Positions 613 to 47,282 of a stretch of 62,439 nt of DNA are shown piece after piece. Positions within the stretch are counted from its first letter, which is position 1, and the number at the start of each line of letters is the position of its first letter. The translations under genes were made by a program, and so were the position numbers. Origin of the DNA: a virus (lineage: Duplodnaviria > Caudoviricetes); the IMG/VR virus record IMGVR_UViG_3300036801_000157, positions 1 to 62,439 of that record; one strand, 5' to 3'. A model generated the notes under the pieces. That model saw only the letters and a list, made by a program, of their open reading frames with translations. It searched no databases and was not told the DNA's origin.

Positions 613-1368
613 ATGGCAAGACCATCAGAAGCATTCAACGAAGCCCCGAAGCGCCGCGGCCGGCCGCCGCTGATTCGAACCGCCTTTGAACCACCCAAGC
701 GCCGGGGCAGGCCGCCAAAGATTGAACCCGCCATCGAAGCACCGAAGCGCCGCGGGCGCCCCCCGCTGGCACGTGCCGATATCGAAGCGACACCCAAGCG
801 CCGGGGTCGGCCGCCACGTGTCGGCATTGAAGCCGAACCGCCGAAGCGCCGGGGCAGGCCGCCGCTCGCCAAGGAACTGGCGCCCAAGCGGCGTGGCAGG
901 CCACCTGCGCCACGTGTCGACAAGGACGACAAGTCGGTCGACATGGCTTTCCCGCTGATCGGCAGGAACGATCTCCGCAGGCTCCTCGAAGAGGCCGCGA
1001 TCCTCGGCAATCGGGCATCCAGCGCCAACGGATCGAGAAACGAACTGGTTGGTGAATACGTCAAGAACAAGCACCTTCACGCCGGGGCATTCCGCATCAT
1101 TTCGCGCTGGGCGAAGCTGGGCGAGGACGATCCGCAAAAGCTGTGGCTGGAACTTGCGCACCTTGATGACATGAGATCGAAGGCCGGAATCGACAGGATA
1201 GCCAAGGCGCAGGGCCAGTTGCTGCCGGCGATCGCCGACGAGGCTGAAGACGCTAAAGAGGCCGCCGAGGCTAAAGAGGCCGACGCTGAAACAGGGGCAG
1301 AGCAGAAAGACGACAAGGCGAGGAATTATCCTCGCGAGGTCGAGGAACGCGCCGGGGATGCCGCATGA
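613..1368 (+). CDS. AT-hook repeat DNA-binding protein with helical C-terminal domain
   Basis: Six PKRRGRPP motifs; AGGAG RBS; acidic tail. Confidence 0.75.
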   Translation: MARPSEAFNEAPKRRGRPPLIRTAFEPPKRRGRPPKIEPAIEAPKRRGRPPLARADIEATPKRRGRPPRVGIEAEPPKRRGRPPLAKELAPKRRGRPPAPRVDKDDKSVDMAFPLIGRNDLRRLLEEAAILGNRASSANGSRNELVGEYVKNKHLHAGAFRIISRWAKLGEDDPQKLWLELAHLDDMRSKAGIDRIAKAQGQLLPAIADEAEDAKEAAEAKEADAETGAEQKDDKARNYPREVEERAGDAA

Positions 1369-3711: not shown

Positions 3712-4073
3712 TCGACCTGTGGGCGGATCATGCCAACGTGCGCGCCGTCAACGTGATGATGCTGCTTGCCAAGATGCGGCTTGAAGCTGGGAGATCGCCG
3801 GCGCCCTGGTATCGGGCCGCCGGGCAACACCTCGCGCGCCTGCGCCGCGGGCGGGGCAAGAGCAAATGGGCACAACTTGTGCGCGACGAATGCGGGATCG
3901 GCACCAGTCGCGCTTTCGAACTGATCGCGCTCGGGCGAGGCAAGGCTCTCGCGGAGGCCCGCGCGGAGAATTCCGGTAGAGTTAAAAAGTCACGCAGCTG
4001 CAAAGCGTTACCTGGTCCAAGGGGCCCCAGGAAGACGGCAAATCGCCGCTCTGGCACAGATTCCAAGCATTGA
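3708..4073 (+). CDS. DUF3102-like helical protein
   Basis: AAGQHLARL...KWAQLVRDECGIGTSRAFELIAL pattern. Confidence 0.55.
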   Translation: MIDLWADHANVRAVNVMMLLAKMRLEAGRSPAPWYRAAGQHLARLRRGRGKSKWAQLVRDECGIGTSRAFELIALGRGKALAEARAENSGRVKKSRSCKALPGPRGPRKTANRRSGTDSKH

Positions 4074-4111
4074 TTATATTGACGTTTTCCTGTCGCGGAC
4101 GGGGCTCGAAG

Positions 4112-4621
4112 GTGGCCAACGACGAGGTCCAGCTCGCTTTGATCGCCGAGGCCGCGCCGCTCCGGGTGGCCGCCAAGCCATTCGTCGTCTTCGAGATTGC
4201 CGGCGAGCCGAAGGCCTGGGGCCGGCCGGGCGCAACCATTCGTTGGGCTAGTGGTCGACCGTTCATCCACTGGTATGTATCGGCGCCAGAGGCCGCCTAC
4301 AGGACCGCAGTAGCTTGGTGCGCCAAGAGTGCCATGAAGGGCCGAAAGCCCACCAGCGAGCCCGTGGCGCTGCTGGCGCATGCCTTCGTTGGCATTCCTC
4401 CAAGCTGGCATTGGCTCACCAAGCAAAAAGCGCGTTCTGGCGCGCTGTTGCCGACCGGAAAACCAGACCACGACAATTTTCTGAAACTTCTCTGCGATGC
4501 CTTGCGCGGAATTGTTTGGCTCGATGATGCCGCCGTCGTCGATGGCCGATGCATTAAACGATTCAGCGATCGACCAGCACTTAGATGCGAGGTCAGAGAA
4601 TTCACTTCGTCGCTAAAATGA
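4112..4621 (+). CDS. rusA: RusA family Holliday junction resolvase
   Basis: GEPKAWGRP, KPDHDNFLKLLCDAL, VWLDDAAVV motifs; probable GTG start. Confidence 0.9.
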   Translation: MANDEVQLALIAEAAPLRVAAKPFVVFEIAGEPKAWGRPGATIRWASGRPFIHWYVSAPEAAYRTAVAWCAKSAMKGRKPTSEPVALLAHAFVGIPPSWHWLTKQKARSGALLPTGKPDHDNFLKLLCDALRGIVWLDDAAVVDGRCIKRFSDRPALRCEVREFTSSLK

Positions 4622-4653
4622 AAACGGGCCGCGTTTGGATCGCGACCCGCTTC
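4621..4653 (-). terminator. Hairpin terminator closing array 1 (possibly bidirectional with rusA)
   Basis: GCGGGTCGCG-loop-CGCGGCCCGT followed by TTTT on the minus strand. Confidence 0.6.
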
Positions 4654-4660
4654 ATTCATT

Positions 4661-5806
4661 ACTGCCTTGCGTTGCCCAGCCTTTCCGGACCGGACCACGC
4701 CAAGCCTCACCCGATCACATCTCGCCACAACCGGACAGACCGCGCCTGCCGAACCAAGCCTAGCCACGCCATGTCGCATCCCGCCCCACTACGCCATGTC
4801 GCACCCCGCCACGCCTGCCAAGCCTGATCAAGCCTGTTCGAATCGAGTCGAGACATGCCATATCCCCGCCGCGCCTGCCTTCCATGCCAAATTTAACGCT
4901 GCCGAACGGACCTCGCCATATCGCGCCTGCCTTCCATGCCGCGCCCAATTCGACCCAACCACACCGGAACCTGTCGCACCCGACCATGTTTAGCCGAGCC
5001 GCGCCTGCCTGACCCAGCCTCTGCTCGCCGAACCCGGTCTAGGCTAGTGTTGCCACGCCTGCCATACCGACCGGAACTTATCTTGTCGCGCCCAGCCAAT
5101 CCCCGTCCCGTCTCGCCATGCCTGCCACGCCATGCCTTGCCTCACCCGACCGCACCGGGCCGTACCCTGTCCCACCGAACCATGCCGCACCGAACCATGC
5201 CGCGCCTTGCCGGACCCAACCGCGCCTGCCTCGCCACGCCCCGCCTGACCGTATTCAGCCCAGACGAACCTTACCCGACCCGACCACGCGCGCCGCGCCT
5301 GCCTCGCCCTACCTTGCCTCGTTACACCCAACCTTGCCAAACCCAATCCCACCTCGCCATTCCTGCCACGCTTGCCGGGCCTATCCTCGACCGACCTAGC
5401 CTTGTATCGCCAAGCTATATCAAGCCCCGCCTGCCAGACCTCGCCATGCCACGCCGGACCTTGTCTTACCTAGTTCCACCCCACCTCGCCTCGCCACGAT
5501 GCGACGCGCCATACCGCTCCTGCCATGCATGTCCATGCCTCGCCTCACGGCGCCCAGCCGGACCTCACCTCATCGGGACTTGCCCCGCCTGCCTTCCTTG
5601 CCTTGCCATGCCTTATTGCACCCGGCCCAGACACGCCCCATCTCGACTTACCGATCCTGCCATGCCCAGCCCAGCCTCACCTTTCCAGACCATGCCGTGC
5701 CACGCCCCACCTTGACTATCCGTGCAAGACCAAGCCCCGCCTGCCATAGATCACCGCGCCCGCGATTGCGCCGAGCGTTGCGCTGCCAATCCGCACCGTG
5801 CCTGCC
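4661..5806 (-). ncRNA. Array 1: about 15-16 GGCAGG-delimited units of GGY-NN pentamers (putative gapped guide RNAs)
   Basis: On + strand CCTGCC delimiters end at 4750, 4819, 4879, 4931, 5009, 5063, 5126, 5230, 5303, 5367, 5435, 5524, 5593, 5661, 5745, 5806; between them a 5-nt NN-RCC period; ORFs across it are low-complexity shadows. Confidence 0.9.
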
Positions 5807-5860
5807 GAGCTTTTTCCGCTTCATAGATGCGGTGGCCCACGCGAGGAGCGCCTCGCGCCG
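5796..5860 (-). promoter_or_regulatory. Conserved structured leader of array 1
   Basis: 51/65 ungapped identity by hand to 7682-7746; CCGC-loop-GCGG hairpin. Confidence 0.75.
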
Positions 5861-5866
5861 CGGAAT

Positions 5867-6352
5867 TTATGCAGCGAGTCGTTGCTCCAAATCGATCAGT
5901 TCTTGAAGCATCCGCTGCAATAAACCAGACAAACCTGGATGTCTCGAATCGAGCATATGCGTAACATCACGCGCGCGTTCGATCGAACTCTTACAACGCA
6001 TAACTTCAGCCAGCACAATGCGTTCAGCCGCGCTGCGATTGATTGATGTGGCTGTGATCGGAACATGGCCGGCTTCGTTGTCGCGACGATCCGGATTTGA
6101 GACGTAATACGGCGAAACTATTCGCATCGATTCGTGAACGACTGTAACTGTTATGAATCGAATTAGTTCACCAGCCCGATCGAGCCGTTGCTTGTGCGCC
6201 GCCTTTCGGTCATCCCAAATAAATTCTGAATGCAATACATGCCGCGCTGGACGAGCAGCGCGGACGATGTCCTCTCGCTTCAGCACGCCGCCGTTCGCCT
6301 CGCGGATTTGCTCCAGCGCGTCGCGGATTTGATCATCTCTGCGCGATGCCAT
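5867..6352 (-). CDS. Accessory protein of the RAMP/array system (161 aa)
   Basis: Overlaps the RAMP stop codon (TAATG); GVL..EDIVRAAR...LHSEFIWDD.KAA...RL..A.ELIR motif; lies between RAMP gene and array 1. Confidence 0.8.
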   Translation of the reverse strand: MASRRDDQIRDALEQIREANGGVLKREDIVRAARPARHVLHSEFIWDDRKAAHKQRLDRAGELIRFITVTVVHESMRIVSPYYVSNPDRRDNEAGHVPITATSINRSAAERIVLAEVMRCKSSIERARDVTHMLDSRHPGLSGLLQRMLQELIDLEQRLAA

Positions 6353-7242
6353 TATTCAATCCCCACATATTCTGCCTCGCCCTTGCCATCAAGCTTTTCA
6401 AGAATCACTGGGCCTTTCGGCATCGGCCGACGCTTGCCTTTGCGGTCCACCAGTTCATGATCCTCGGCATCGATAAGCTGGCCAAGCATCTCGCGCCGCG
6501 CGACTTCTTCGGAAAACCAAGTCAGTAGTTCTTCGGTGTTTTCATCGAAAAATCCAGGTGATTTGAACGCCTTGTCCTGCGCCGTGCGCGCTTGGGTCTT
6601 GACGATGCGCTTGAAATCAGCATTATTGGATTCGACGACATCGTAAGCGCCGAATGGTCCGCCTTTCTGGCCACGCCAATCGCCGATGCCGACGATCTTG
6701 CCGGCGGCGCCAAAGAGATTCACGACGGTTCGCTCTGTCAGGATGCCTCGGATGTAGCGAAAGGTGATCGTGCCGCACCACTCCGGAAAGATCGGCCGTG
6801 TGCGAACGTCCGGCGTGCGATTCTGGTCAGAATTGCGCACCATTGCGCAATAAATTTCTGGCGTGCCATATAGGTTTACCTGCAATTCTACGATCTTGGT
6901 GAGCCGCTCGATTTTGGCTTTTGCCGTTCCTGGAATGTCGAGCGCGACCGCCGACAATGCGCCGTGAAATGCGCCGGACGGAACGTGAATGAGCGTCTTC
7001 TCTTTCAGATCGCGGTTGACATAAAGCGCGCCTCTGAACTCAGCAGGCGGATCGTGCTTGAGGCTCTGTTCCAGCCCAGCCCGGTTCTGCCTGATGCTTG
7101 GGAACAGCAATTCCCGCCAAGCCTTTGCGGCAAATCTATTCATGATCATCGGAGACGTGCCGAGGAAGTTCATCGTCACTTCGTCGATCTTGATCTCCTG
7201 GATTTCGAGCTGCGCCTCTTCTTTTTTCCTCTTCGGTGCCAT
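6352..7242 (-). CDS. RAMP/Cas7-like RNA-binding protein (putative Vipr-type effector)
   Basis: N-terminal LGTSPMI strand; IHVPSGAFHGAL (cf. RAMP IP.SS.KGAL); Gly-rich loop GIGDWRGQKGGPFG; flanked by arrays; no cas genes in the window. Confidence 0.8.
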   Translation of the reverse strand: MAPKRKKEEAQLEIQEIKIDEVTMNFLGTSPMIMNRFAAKAWRELLFPSIRQNRAGLEQSLKHDPPAEFRGALYVNRDLKEKTLIHVPSGAFHGALSAVALDIPGTAKAKIERLTKIVELQVNLYGTPEIYCAMVRNSDQNRTPDVRTRPIFPEWCGTITFRYIRGILTERTVVNLFGAAGKIVGIGDWRGQKGGPFGAYDVVESNNADFKRIVKTQARTAQDKAFKSPGFFDENTEELLTWFSEEVARREMLGQLIDAEDHELVDRKGKRRPMPKGPVILEKLDGKGEAEYVGIE

Positions 7243-7282
7243 TTGGTGTTGTCCTTGCTAGACATCGGCCGATTTAGCCGCG

Positions 7283-7318
7283 CGGCCACTATTGCCAAAT
7301 AATCCAGCGTTTGACAAG
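7283..7318 (-). promoter_or_regulatory. Putative sigma70-type promoter for the RAMP operon
   Basis: CTTGTCAA-N14-GGCAA-TAGT-GGCCG, same layout as 15625, 28531 and 40921. Confidence 0.6.
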
Positions 7319-7322
7319 CCAC

Positions 7323-7370
7323 AAAAAAAAAGGCCCGCAGCCGGCGCAAGGATAAACCGGCTACGAGCCC
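7323..7370 (-). terminator. Rho-independent terminator downstream of array 2
   Basis: GGGCTCGTAGCCGG...CCGGCTGCGGGCC stem followed by T9. Confidence 0.85.
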
Positions 7371-7426
7371 TGTGGGCCAAATCCGCGACGGGATCGTGCG
7401 GCTTGGCGGCACCTAAAGTGTTAATA

Positions 7427-7690
7427 CCTTCCAGGTCGGCCTGACCGCGCCTGTCCTAGCCTCACGCGCCCCGCCGCACCGAGACTTACCCAGCGTGCCT
7501 CGCCTGCCAAGCCATGCCGAACCGGACTGTACCCAGCAACACCTGACCACAACATATCACGCCGTGACGAACCCCGCCTGCCTCGCCGCGCCGAACCGAT
7601 CTGTACCTTGTCCTGACGTGCCCAGACGTGCCCGGACATACCAAGCCTGCCCTACAATTCCGAGCAAATGGACGTGCCGCGCCGTGCCTA
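7427..7690 (-). ncRNA. Array 2: 3 full GGY-NN units plus leader-proximal part
   Basis: Delimiters end at 7432 (CCTTCC), 7508, 7582, 7651; 5-nt period; leader 7682-7746. Confidence 0.85.
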
Positions 7691-7755
7691 CCGACCGTTT
7701 ACCGCTTCATAGCTGCGGGCGGCCGCGCGAGAAACGTCCCGCGCCACAGCGTGTG

Positions 7756-8340
7756 TCATACGCCGGAATTTCTTGAATCGTCAAGCAGCGCATTGACGCG
7801 CTCTGACGCTTGCACAGTATCGTCGAACTGTTCAACCCCCCATTTGCCAGCGCCGATCAGTTTCACAACATAACTGCCGTGCGTAATTTCGATATCTTTT
7901 TCTGGCAGCACCAACCAAACACGATCGTGAATTCTAATATGAACCAACAAAATTTCATCGGCAGATCGCACATGCAAGCCACGCAACGACATCGCCTTTA
8001 ATTGTTGATAATATGGCGCATCTTTCCACACATCAGGATAATCAGGATCAACCGTGCACGTCACACATTGGACTCCATTGAAAACACCAAGACTTAAAAT
8101 CATGTGACTCAATAATGGAAACCATTCATGGCCGACTTTCGGGCTCATCAGCCAGCCACATGCATAGGTGCGACATATCTGCGGACGCGCTTCGTAAATT
8201 CCGCAGCCACCGCAGCCAGGCCGACAGTGCTCGCACCAAACGCCTGCCGGCTTGGATAATTCGGCAACAAATAATAATCGGCAGCATTCGGAACACTTGC
8301 CGCAGGATCGTCCTGGCGCGATTGGCGGGCCACCGTGCAT
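7756..8340 (-). CDS. Cys-cluster protein (YkgJ/CxxCxxCC-like)
   Basis: RSCGKCSECC, WCEHC, CGIYEARPQICRTYAC; start set at TGATG overlap. Confidence 0.75.
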   Translation of the reverse strand: MHGGPPIAPGRSCGKCSECCRLLFVAELSKPAGVWCEHCRPGCGGCGIYEARPQICRTYACGWLMSPKVGHEWFPLLSHMILSLGVFNGVQCVTCTVDPDYPDVWKDAPYYQQLKAMSLRGLHVRSADEILLVHIRIHDRVWLVLPEKDIEITHGSYVVKLIGAGKWGVEQFDDTVQASERVNALLDDSRNSGV

Positions 8341-9716
8341 CACGTTGTCCATATTCCAAACCCGACCGGCGCGGGATAAATAAACGGCGTGCCGGATACG
8401 GTGCCGCCGAAATTGCCGACCATCTGATCGTTGATCGCGCCGCTGGCGCCGCCGAAGCAGACCGCAGGCGCCATCGGCGACGACGCCTGGATGACCACAC
8501 CGCCGATGCCAGTGTTCGGATTCTCGGAACCGAGAACAAGCCCGTTCCAATTGCCGCCGTTCTTACGCAGCCACGCTTTGCGCGCGCCGAGATCGATCGC
8601 AAAGCTGATCACATCGCCAGATGTGCACGCGCCGAGCGTCTTGCCGCTATTAGCGCTGTTGGAAAATATATTTCCTGTCGACCTGTAGAGCGCCGTGCAT
8701 TGAATGCCGCCGACCATATTGTTGAAAGAGCCGGTCGACGAAAGTAGTCCTGGACAATCGGATGCGCCATGCGTCACGGCCATCGTGACTTCGAAATAAT
8801 ACTTGCCTGCCGTTTTCTGCGTTGTGCTGATAGCACCGCCATTGGCGACTGTGCTGGTGCGGGTCACCGATAATTTGCTGGCCGACAGCGAGACCGCAGC
8901 CGCCGTGCCGTCGAATGATGCTGGCTGACCACTGACGACGACTGGTATGTAAAATGCTTCCTGGTCGAACATGACATCGATATCGATTATTTGATTGCCG
9001 CCGAACAACGACAGAAGATAGATGGCGTCAGTGTCTGTTGCTAAGCCGGCGAACAATGTCGCGATAACATCGCTTCGTGCAGCATAGATCGCGTCGCTAT
9101 CAGTCACCAACGAGACGCCGAGCACTGTCGCGCTCGTGCGCGCTGGTGGATAAAACACATCCAGATCATTGACGAAAGGCGCAAACAGGAAATTTCGAAA
9201 CACGATCGGCGCGAACACCGAGTCCGATTCCGTGTGCCGGCCTGGCAGCACAGTCAATGGCGTGCTCAATTCCGGCGCAAACACCATTTCGAAATCTCCG
9301 AACAGGCTTGGTCGCACCGATCCAGGGAGCCCGACGACCGCCGAGAATATCGCGTCATCACTATTATATATGTTTGGCCATACGCTGCCAGGTGCCACCA
9401 CTGGCGCGATGGAAGGCAACGACAGAACGTCACCGTCGAAATAGATCATCGGCGTGACGACCTGATCGCCTTTCAGGATTGGCGCAAACACGAAATCGTC
9501 GGTGATCAGGAATCCAATATTCATAGCTTGTGGAATTATGGCGGCAAAAATAGAATCTAATTCGGATACAAATGGCGACGACAACAATTGAGTGACGGCA
9601 TAATCGAACGCAATGAACGGACCCATAATACCGTCGGCGTCATCGTAATAACGCGTTGGACCAATCACACCGCGAGGCGTGAGCGTTCCGATCTGCGCAA
9701 TGATGCCTGAGATCAT
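8340..9716 (-). CDS. Virion protein with D.D..Y.P repeats and C-terminal SPRY/ConA-like domain
   Basis: GKYYFEV, GDVISFAIDL...KAWLRKNG, NFG...F.YPAP.GF. Confidence 0.7.
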   Translation of the reverse strand: MISGIIAQIGTLTPRGVIGPTRYYDDADGIMGPFIAFDYAVTQLLSSPFVSELDSIFAAIIPQAMNIGFLITDDFVFAPILKGDQVVTPMIYFDGDVLSLPSIAPVVAPGSVWPNIYNSDDAIFSAVVGLPGSVRPSLFGDFEMVFAPELSTPLTVLPGRHTESDSVFAPIVFRNFLFAPFVNDLDVFYPPARTSATVLGVSLVTDSDAIYAARSDVIATLFAGLATDTDAIYLLSLFGGNQIIDIDVMFDQEAFYIPVVVSGQPASFDGTAAAVSLSASKLSVTRTSTVANGGAISTTQKTAGKYYFEVTMAVTHGASDCPGLLSSTGSFNNMVGGIQCTALYRSTGNIFSNSANSGKTLGACTSGDVISFAIDLGARKAWLRKNGGNWNGLVLGSENPNTGIGGVVIQASSPMAPAVCFGGASGAINDQMVGNFGGTVSGTPFIYPAPVGFGIWTT

Positions 9717-40920: not shown

Positions 40921-40955
40921 CTTGCATTAATCTGACAAATAGGCCACTTTGGCCG
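40921..40955 (+). promoter_or_regulatory. Putative promoter of array 4
   Basis: CTTGCATT-N13-GGCCA-CTTT-GGCCG. Confidence 0.6.
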
Positions 40956-41016
40956 TGCGGCGTCGAGCGTTCTCGGCGCGGTCGCCCGGTAGCGTTAAAC
41001 CGGGAATTGATCGAGG

Positions 41017-41366
41017 GGCACGGTTCGGACAGGCGAGAACGAGGCGCGGCCAGACAGCGCTCGATAATCTTTGGCAGGAGCGGCTAGACCGGACGGGGCG
41101 AGGCTGGGCATGGCGCGTTCGGGCAAAGCGCAGCGTGGCAAGGCAGGCGTGGTTGGGTTGGACATGGTGCGGCATGGACTGGCGGGGTCAGGCGGGGCTT
41201 GGCCTGGCAGGCCAGGCACGTCGGGCGCAGCGAGTCTAGTGCAGGCAAGGCACGGCGCGGCGAGGCATGTCGCGGCAGGGATTGGCATGGCAGGCGCGGT
41301 CCGGTGCGGCTGAGCAGGACGTGGCTGGGCGCGGTGCGGATTTGCCCGGCAACGCAAGGCCGGCAG
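41017..41366 (+). ncRNA. Array 4: 4 full GGY-NN units plus leader-proximal part
   Basis: GGCAGG at 41073, 41142, 41206, 41289, final GGCAG 41362; leader 40956-41024 resembles leaders of arrays 1 and 2. Confidence 0.85.
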
Positions 41367-41373
41367 AATGTTT

Positions 41374-43244: not shown

Positions 43245-45587
43245 TCAATCCGCTCCAATCCAGCCAAGATCGAGATCGTAATTGCGAGCGCGATCATCGA
43301 AGCATTTCCATGCAAGACCAAGGGCCATACAGCAATCGTCAAAAAGTCCAGGAGGAGCCGCATAGCGAATACCAAGGCGAGTCCATTCGTATTCCATGGA
43401 TAGCAGCTCGATGCTGATCGGCCCCTCGGGAAACCGCACCTTGCGCTCGTGGATCGCCAACCCGAGCCCTTCCATCAGCCCCTGCTTGGACGCCTGCGTG
43501 AACCTGAAACCTTCGAGCCGCGGACAACTCAGCTCGATCACCTCGGCGCGGTTCGATCCGCTGCGCACCGGCAGCTTGATGGCTTCGACTATCGGATCAC
43601 CGACACCAGTCTCATCCACCAAAGCAGGCGTGTTGCCCACGTATTTCTTGATAATGTCCACTGTGACATGCCAAGGCCGCTGGAAGCGCAACGCTTCGCA
43701 GACGTGGCCATCCTCATCAAGGCCGATGCCGACCGTATAATCCACCTTTCTCGCCAGGTCCCAGCCCCATGCCACCGCGGGCCGCTCGCTCAATGGCGCA
43801 AAACATGCCCTGATATGCTGGGCACCGAACGGATTGCCCTCGTCGTCGCTCGGCTCGGCGAGATAAAGCTCCTTGAAGACATGCTCTGGCAGCATCGCCT
43901 TCGCCGATCTGATCTCCTCATCTGCGAGCACGCCAGCAGCAACCGCATCCCATGCCGTTATCTTGTGGTAACCGAAATTCGGCATGCCTTGCTCGGCCAA
44001 ACGCGCCAATTGGAAAAACCAGTTTTGGCGTCCCTTGACATTTCCGATTATGCGGATCGGACCGCGCGTCGCCGTCAGTGTCGAGCGGATGGCATGAAAT
44101 GCCTCTTCACGACATCTGCTCGCTTCGTCCACTACGCAGGCATAGACATCTTCACCGTAAAGTGAATTACCAGACCAGCAAGGCTTTCCGTTGCGCCTGA
44201 CAAGAATGCATGTATTCGGAACCGAAACACAATGCACCGTACCATCATATGAGCGGCCCTCATAAAATGGACCGGCCTTCGTTGAACTAAGACATCGCGA
44301 TGTCAATTCCGAAAACATAACTCGATAGAGTGGAGCGCGCTGCATAATGTCGCGTCCATCCTTCAATTTGCCGGATGACATCTCCGGATTTGGATGTTTG
44401 ACGCCGATAATCGCGCTATAGCCGCACTTGAGAGCGATTTCCTGAATATCGTCCGCTAGCCGTTTACTAGCTGTCCAGATGACTTCAATATGCCCACGAC
44501 GGATGCAACCATCACCCATGGCGAGCCACACCAGCAATGTGCGCAGCTTATCCGGTGGAAGCTGCTTCACTGCACATGGAATATATTTTTTATATTTGTC
44601 GCCCAACACAACAAGATAAGACCAAAGTTCCTTGTCCCATATTTTTAATCCGGCCGAATATTCTTTCGTCTTGTGCCCTAATCTTGCAAGCACTTCGCCA
44701 AACGCTTCTCGAACTTCGCCCTTCTCGCCACCCTTGATCCCAGCCGTTTGTGCAAAATGAATGCGATAACCGTTGCGCGCCACGAGCGCTGCAGCTTTCT
44801 CAATTGTGCTGGCATTGCCAAGAGCCGAACCTTCAGCCAAATAGAAACCTAAAAATGCGCAAAAATCATGCGTCATGACATCGTTGTCAAAGCCATCCCA
44901 TCGAGAGTGCATTGGAATCGTATCATACGCCTTTAGCTCACTCGCTGGCACCCACATTTCAACTGATCTCGGCTTGGCACGCCTACCTGGACCGAGCCGA
45001 GATGCTCCACGCTTGCGCTGCACAATCTGCCGATGATTTGGTGTCACCAACAAATCGATCTTGTTCGCCCGAATGGCGACCATTTCGCCATTATAAGGCT
45101 GATGAATGATACGCGTTGGTCGTTGCCATTCAGCCACCCCACCAGGTGATCGCGTCATCACATCGTCCGTAGTGAGAACATCTGCAAAATACTTCCACCC
45201 ATCCAGAGTAAGCACCTCTGTCTCACTGTCATAACAGTCAGGCCGATCAGAGCCGCGAAATGCAATCACCGCGCCATTGATCATAGTCAGCGTATGATCG
45301 GTAAGGTGGGTGGTGAAAACCGATCTCCCATCCTGATCGAGAAAATGCTGACGCATCCGATTGAAGGCAATGCGAGCCTGCAATGTGACCGGCGCAACCC
45401 ACCAAAAATTCTGTCCTGGCCCGCCCTTGAGCGCCTGCTCGTACAGCCAAATGATGGCGCTCACCGTCTTGCCAGATTTAGCGCTCGCCTCGATCAGCGA
45501 AATGCGCGCCGGATCGAACATGGCCGCGCGCTGCTTTTCATACAGCGGCGGCCGCTTGTAGATGATCTCGTGCGCCTGCTCGCTCAT
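43245..45587 (-). CDS. terL: Terminase large subunit containing an intein
   Basis: ASAKSGKT Walker A, VVDEA Walker B, GWDLA..VDYT, DETGVG, DDCCMAL. Confidence 0.92.
44166..45236 (-). mobile_element. Intein (357 aa) with LAGLIDADG endonuclease
   Basis: Starts [10 protein letters not shown], block [14 protein letters not shown] and MGDG motifs, ends VHCVSV...RRNGK..WSGN followed by Ser. Confidence 0.9.
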
Positions 45588-47095: not shown

Positions 47096-47282
47096 CCAAT
47101 TTGATTAAATTCTTCAAGCCGAACCGCACCCACCCGGTCCGCCGCAAGCCCGTCCCTTCCTGACCTCACTTCTCCGATCTGCCGCACGCCACACCGCCCC
47201 ACACCATCCCATCACTCAGCCCCATATTGCGTAGGCGATGATCATTGCTATCACCACCAGAAACGCCAACAGAAGCCAACTG

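Follow-up and report, generated by a model that had tools for sequence, protein, structure and literature searches.

Between the end of the RusA gene and the end of a minus-strand gene (5867–6352), an uncultured soil siphovirus carries about 1.15 kb in which no credible gene was found. The question raised by this tract is what its repeated pentamers are for. The window analyzed here, meaning the whole stretch of DNA, is a linear IMG/VR virus record of 62.4 kb with an estimated completeness of 83% and siphovirus-type structural genes. A reading of its letters alone (the original prediction) held that two consecutive units of the tract decode to the catalytic region of a tyrosine integrase, that no integrase lies in the window, and that the units are guides against the integrase of a competing mobile element or against a relative's allele. 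The second of these points was confirmed, as a six-frame search with PF00589 (E ≤ 1) returned no integrase in the window. An Rfam search of positions 4000–8500 (E ≤ 1) matched no family. The sole blastn match of positions 4000–8000 among phages was 110 nt of Gordonia phage UmaThurman, and the matching segment is UmaThurman's own pentamer array. A search of sequencing runs found the stretch in one DNA run, likely the source sample, and listed no RNA run.

Read on the minus strand, the tract is an array of (GGYNN)n pentamers (array 1; Table 1), which on the plus strand appear as C-rich NNRCC pentamers with a GC skew of about −0.4. Parsing yielded 215 pentamers, 154 of which start with GG and 142 with GGY, and positions 4 and 5 are near-uniform. 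The pentamers form 13 in-phase runs of 11–20 repeats and four shorter runs (3–8 repeats), the latter located near the 4859–4927 end. Breaks between runs are mostly register shifts of 3–4 nt (GGCA, GCA, or GCG), with a few others (GAGC, GATC, GTTC, and T). On the plus strand the register slips every 52–104 nt at a near-constant (G)CGCC-TGCC, and this GCGCC-TGCC punctuation ends most units. No invariable tail or pseudoknot was seen between in-phase runs, which are separated by just these 3–4 nt. We infer that each in-phase run is one guide; the boundaries of the units are putative because no type II-like 3' tail or pseudoknot separates them.

Related arrays were identified elsewhere in the window, both upstream and downstream of the genes described below. 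Array 3 lies away from them, between the portal and tail-fibre genes. An element of about 75 nt is common to arrays 1, 2, and 3 (mean column identity, 75%) and contains a small hairpin with a 9–10 nt loop; it may serve these arrays as promoter or leader. The order on the minus strand is leader, array 2, hairpin, promoter-like site, vipr, vap-like gene, leader, and array 1. A further hairpin, between the end of the RusA gene and the end of array 1, was absent from a terminator scan begun at 4550.

Table 1. Positions of genes, arrays, candidate guides, and associated elements in the window
Feature	Coordinates	Strand	Basis or description
RusA gene	4070-4621	plus	
Putative GC-rich hairpin, T-rich runs flanking on both strands	4625..4655	.	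by eye from sequence
vrRNA array 1, (GGYNN)n	4662..5797	minus	pentamer parsing
Unit C', putative 15-repeat run	4931..5005	minus	read-out a loose fit to the stretch between the L-G-H His and a Tyr nine residues later
Unit A, putative 20-repeat guide	5127..5226	minus	read-out from just after H-D-L-R-R-T-A-x to L-G-H
Unit B, putative 12-repeat guide, two repeats degenerate	5231..5290	minus	read-out ends H-D-L-R-R-T, W at −3
Leader-like element, array 1	5798..5866	minus	upstream of array in vrRNA sense
vap-like accessory gene, 161 aa	5867..6352	minus	synteny
vipr, 296-aa RAMP protein, glycine-rich loop	6352..7242	minus	profile and structure matches
Promoter-like site	7317-7288	minus	before vipr; sequence scan
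Terminator-like hairpin with T-run	7350-7334	minus	before vipr; sequence scan
vrRNA array 2	7436..7666	minus	upstream of vipr; runs of 14, 15, 7, and 5 repeats
Leader-like element, array 2	~7690-7760	minus	sequence common to arrays 1, 2, and 3
Leader-like element, array 3	~40950-41030	plus	sequence common to arrays 1, 2, and 3
vrRNA array 3	41072..41367	plus	four runs of 14–15 repeats, GGCA/GCA shifts
Possible degenerate array 4	47101..47210	minus	22-pentamer run, poor GGY conformity, no shared leader; weak

By profile and by modeled structure, the gene at 6352..7242 encodes a Vipr RAMP protein, and the locus is a VIPR system. The gene belongs to PHROG 4652 and to no Pfam family. A profile built from 38 homologues matches PDB entry 36pp_D, the "SUSP1 Vipr protein", over profile positions 24–206 (E 1.7e-17), and within the glycine-rich loop of the alignment G181, G185, R190, and G198 are invariant. 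An AF2 model of the window's Vipr (mean pLDDT 84.9) produced Foldseek matches to Csm3/Cmr/Cas7-type RAMPs (E 5e-5, probability 1.0). The adjoining vap-like gene (PHROG 15946, no Pfam family) yielded no solved relative of its protein by sequence, and its AF2 model (pLDDT 92.7) resembles winged-helix regulators only weakly in fold (E ≥ 0.2).

Systems called VIPR (for Viral Interference Programmable Repeat) are the subject of three preprints from 2026 (PMC13142463, 10.64898/2026.04.26.720927, and 10.64898/2026.10.15.759431). In the accessible text of the first, Vipr is a minimal RAMP protein and the vrRNAs are 9–16 YNNGG repeats followed by a tail (PMC13142463). Vipr protomers are described there as holding each GGY and presenting the NN, which pairs with DNA so that every third target base, mostly the wobble position, is skipped (PMC13142463, 10.64898/2026.04.26.720927). 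As far as the accessible parts of these sources go, binding silences transcription, and the targets found in nature belong to rival phages, prophages, and satellites (2026 VIPR preprints, including PMC13142463). The VIPR kind itself is already known from them, and the window's array is a further case. The original claim that the units are guides therefore stands on two observations: Vipr homology marks the locus as a VIPR locus, and the decoding that had been used is the NN-plus-skip code that the accessible text reports.

The DNA strand expected to pair with a guide is spelled by the plus-strand dinucleotides of its array; in the present case it is the target's sense strand. Tyrosine recombinases have an H-x-x-R box, an L-G-H about 20 residues on, and a catalytic Tyr nine residues after the His of L-G-H. 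Both the H-x-x-R box (unit B) and L-G-H (unit A) occur in the read-outs at the right spacing; these are guide read-outs and not a gene. The read-out of unit A starts eight codons after the His of H-D-L-R-R-T, as it does in real integrases, and the transcription order B, A, C' is the order of the corresponding segments in an integrase.

Base-by-base reading reproduced the 20 in-phase dinucleotides from 5127 exactly as first listed. In the second unit the first 12 dinucleotides from 5231 held, and the 13th (GC, read as A) proved to be out of phase: after the T pentamer, a one-base register slip leads into the constant GCGCC-TGCC punctuation. The final A called for both units is uninformative, the last GC of unit A also belonging to the constant element. 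The third base of each pentamer in units A and B is a purine, so only codon positions 1 and 2 carry signal; the residue calls hold at these two positions, whereas literal triplets would give Q, E, and M in place of the chosen H, D, and I. The TG of the second unit had been read as W, and C or a stop is also possible. Two unit B pentamers, 5251–5255 and 5261–5265, deviate from NNRCC.

We consider it likely that units A and B are two adjacent guides directed against catalytic codons in the tyrosine integrase of a rival element, which would be their predicted target. They sit in the main array of guides of a VIPR system that the phage carries. Following the mechanism given in the preprints, Vipr protomers would polymerize along the RNA, each holding one GGY and presenting the next two bases, and the presented bases would pair with double-stranded DNA with every third target base flipped out. 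The 3–4 nt register shift, mostly GGCA, breaks the repeat phase every 11–20 repeats, and each run would be one guide. Guide B, followed by guide A, would pair through codon positions 1 and 2 with the sense strand of a P4/CP4-57-like tyrosine integrase gene in its catalytic region, guide B covering the H-x-x-R box and guide A the stretch up to L-G-H. The bound Vipr-RNA complex would silence transcription, and its likely role would be to keep a rival element's integrase silent, the rival being a prophage, satellite, or island in the host. Since the targeted codons are catalytic, escape mutations would have to change catalytic residues.

We searched for a natural target in several collections, the viral-contig and metagenome-contig searches being made with exact sub-patterns only. 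An 8-codon sub-pattern of unit A had 54 exact matches listed in viral contigs and a 10-codon sub-pattern had three listed in metagenome contigs; none of the 54 and none of the three lies in an integrase. The highest agreement with unit A across the 238 integrase loci listed for a generic motif is 27 of 38 read bases (71%), and by manual count the closest integrases that were fetched share about two thirds of residues with its read-out across 19 codons. A local search of 1.57 Mb, covering both strands of fetched loci, identified no run clearly above its shuffles: the best value for unit A was 27/40 against a shuffle maximum of 26, and for unit B it was 19/24, equal to the shuffle maximum of 19, at a match that is not an integrase locus. 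SUSP1 guides match their targets at about 89%, according to the accessible text of one preprint (10.64898/2026.10.15.759431). Self-targeting was assessed by comparing 12-repeat windows of the four arrays with the phage's own genome under an NNx rule, and no window exceeded 8 of 12 codons (7 for shuffles). Of the targets first proposed, a relative's allele found no support in the closest complete relative, whose integrase belongs to another subfamily and does not match units A or B. The proposal of a competing element's integrase is upheld in part. It draws on the guide nature of the units, on their read-out, and on the serine recombinase precedent described below, and against it stand the exact sub-patterns, which hit no integrase in viral or metagenome contigs.

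These searches bear on a second reading, in which the units are real VIPR guides whose target lies in the past, relics or decoys that have drifted since the target was lost and now silence nothing. GG is missing from 2 of the 12 repeats of unit B, which may be decaying because those two repeats lack it; the two runs between units A and C' are poorly periodic; and the collections searched held no near-perfect target. However, those collections were covered by exact sub-patterns only, no other run of the array is as regular as unit A (on the plus strand, CC ends 18 of its first 19 pentamers), and the read-out of unit A remains near the sequences of real integrases, so we regard loss of the target as unlikely and guides with a present-day integrase target as the better account.

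Whether the integrase read-out exceeds chance was assessed with 118 integrase fragments from viral contigs, fetched among the matches listed for a generic H-D-L-R-R-T-A back-translation. Scored against real integrase codons, the dinucleotides of unit A reached a top score of 10/19, a value reached by none of 300 shuffles, and the best offset was exactly +8 codons in 30 of the 32 integrase loci having at least 8/19 codon matches. With a position matrix from 55 non-redundant integrase fragments, unit A scored 32.4 bits at +8 codons from the His, which none of 20,000 order shuffles reached (mean, 2.0; sd, 3.5; maximum, 27.0); the maximum among 2,355 in-phase windows of other phages' arrays was 16.4 bits. 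A wider profile of 201 columns gave z values of 7.4 for unit A and 6.4 for unit B, neither reached by any of 300 shuffles. Across 78 tests (13 runs, two orientations, and three profiles), units A and B were the only two with z > 3, both as sense reads and at adjacent positions of the integrase profile (121–132 for B and 135–154 for A). A read-out of the H-D-L-R-R-T type occurs once in the window, at 5261, and at none of 8,075 in-phase positions of other arrays. The integrase read-out of units A and B is not chance, and the claim that two adjacent units fit the catalytic region of a tyrosine integrase at the right spacing is upheld by the matrix, offset, and z-score tests. Neither the Vipr nor the Vap profile gave a run with z > 3 in either orientation when used as a target.

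A coincidental resemblance of the dinucleotides to integrase motifs is accordingly very improbable. Many units and many protein families were open to the original prediction, and the scan spans very many windows. In addition, hmmsearch with a small home-made integrase HMM gave nothing significant on single fixed translations in five phases and on both strands; unit A scored about 1 bit (E ~1–2), less than the 2.7 bits of a control decode of the reverse strand. We attribute the weak score of unit A to its short length and to the fixing of one residue per split codon box, but the outcome still weighs against the integrase reading. What counts against coincidence is the matrix score of unit A set against its shuffles and against other arrays, the independent H-D-L-R-R-T in the adjacent unit, and the correct spacing and order of A and B.

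Unit C' fits less closely. Its score of 13.4 bits, taken over 10 repeats, falls short of the null's 99th percentile (14.4), and z for the whole run is below 3. Its profile position follows that of unit A, and a fit to the Tyr segment is suggestive only.

The array signature is widespread in viral contigs, where at least 123 stretches matched and 113 of the 123 matches listed were arrays. In a collection with one genome per bacterial species, 17 of 120 matches were true arrays. A vipr homologue was found in 56 of 77 array-bearing loci, and a vap-like homologue beside the array, which it often abuts, in 52 of 77. Across these 77 loci the vipr and vap-like homologues are always on the strand where the array reads GGYNN, and array orientation tracks vipr and not the flanking genes.

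That the C-rich tract is no guide array at all, and serves instead for Rho loading or termination, as a DNA signal of the G-quadruplex or Chi-like kind, or as a protein-coding gene of low complexity, has next to no likelihood: the plus strand has a strong skew of C over G between convergent genes, long ORFs stay open across the tract (such as plus-strand ORF 4936–5715), and the equivalent tract of UmaThurman is annotated as gene 40, but the tight linkage to a Vipr homologue, an orientation that follows vipr, the pentamers bearing TAG, TGA, or TAA and the register shifts that interrupt any single frame, and the explanation that the accessible VIPR literature offers for a 3+2 repeat all argue against it. 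A codon-plus-CC cryptic gene, a TRAP-like RNA sponge, and centromere repeats had also been considered and were dropped once the Vipr link was found.

We compared the locus with type II VIPR, known from Escherichia phage SUSP1 and a Pseudomonas fulva prophage (PMC13142463). As far as the accessible text describes that type, the two share a small RAMP Vipr with one accessory gene (a putative one in the window), both phage-borne; pentamer RNAs of the GGY/NN form on the upstream as well as the downstream side of the genes; and a target code, predicted for the window, in which NN is followed by a single skipped base that falls on the wobble position (PMC13142463). Relative to SUSP1, the window's Vipr is distant and is matched by profile only, and SUSP1 was absent from the seven phage records in tblastn. 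Several features differ from type II as it is presented in the accessible text. The window's units have a 3–4 nt register shift between them in place of an invariable tail or pseudoknot, and its runs hold 11–20 repeats versus 9–16, with unit A (20) outside the reported range. Array 1 packs 13 long and four shorter runs into 1.15 kb, and the genome has two further arrays at other sites, each preceded by this leader. We did not file the locus under type II because no invariable 3' tail or pseudoknot occurs between its runs.

The closest precedent for the predicted target is SUSP1 vrRNA4, which in the accessible account reads the active-site codons of a satellite serine recombinase (10.64898/2026.10.15.759431). 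Against the excision recombinase of F5 satellites, that guide likewise lies on recombinase active-site codons, so that escape would cost catalysis; its footprint is six units (18 bp), and the available text reports target and effect as shown by experiment (10.64898/2026.10.15.759431). The window, in contrast, offers a tyrosine integrase read-out, two (perhaps three) long guides covering about 31–45 codons, and a predicted target. The backbone RAMPs of Class 1 CRISPR systems (Cas7, Csm3, and Cmr4) have the same RRM-based RAMP fold with a glycine-rich loop and, according to the accessible part of one preprint, also form a filament on the guide with periodic flipped bases (10.64898/2026.04.26.720927). 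VIPR differs from them in its periods, 5 along the guide and 3 along the target versus 6 and 6, in having neither CRISPR repeats nor cas genes, and in binding double-stranded DNA with silencing and not cleavage.

A more specific proposal is that this clade organizes its guides in a way that accounts of VIPR have yet to include: long arrays that lack tails and follow a shared leader of about 75 nt, guides of 11–20 repeats delimited only by a GGCA-type shift that breaks the phase of the Vipr filament, and consecutive guides, in the order of the target gene, tiling the catalytic core of an integrase. We hold this to be possible though rather doubtful, and tail-less register-shift arrays with a leader in common may prove to be either a described architecture or a new one. 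Were the proposal right, breakage of filament phase by the register shift would mean that no tail, ribozyme, or processing site is needed, and guides bounded only in this way would give new insight into how Vipr filaments are measured out on RNA.

By the same test, the window's phage, more than 50 other viral contigs, and Gordonia phage UmaThurman are placed in the newly described VIPR class. The read-outs of units A and B suggest the active-site codons of tyrosine integrases as natural VIPR targets, as has been shown for a serine recombinase, and the 20-repeat and 12-repeat guides provide a concrete test case with a predicted target.

Two other proteins in the window have unusual features. 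The first (613–1368, plus strand; 251 aa) contains about seven copies of an AT-hook-like motif, P-K-R-R-G-R-P-P, encoded by 48-nt tandem repeats at 649–863; PHROG and Pfam searches of this protein returned no family. The second is a 780-aa ORF (43245–45587, minus strand) with a large terminase domain in its C-terminal half; residues 115–254 of the ORF also match a thymidylate-synthase PHROG. This second match may reflect a fusion, an insert, or an artefact of ORF calling.

In UmaThurman, gene 40 (NC_031249.1, 33362–33685) is annotated as a hypothetical protein and consists of a GGYNN/NNRCC array of the same build, so that this ORF call is probably spurious. Of its neighbors, gene 39 encodes a homologue of Vipr (tblastn E 8e-12) and gene 41 a member of the vap-like family. 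A tyrosine integrase and a repressor are encoded about 2 kb from the array.

Arrays of several units were also identified in bacterial records, with three pattern matches in Aureimonas ureilytica and nine in Nocardia sp., and these probably sit in prophages. A 158-kb viral contig carries a 1.6-kb array (L043:1421-3004) in which a hairpin-forming insert of about 40 nt recurs roughly seven times between pentamer runs; in a different VIPR architecture, this insert could be a tail or have a part in processing. In the closest relative, the array (L002:7626-8288) contains fresh tandem duplications of whole short units, with a 19-nt block present three to four times and a 9-nt block three times, which hints that these arrays grow by slippage or duplication.
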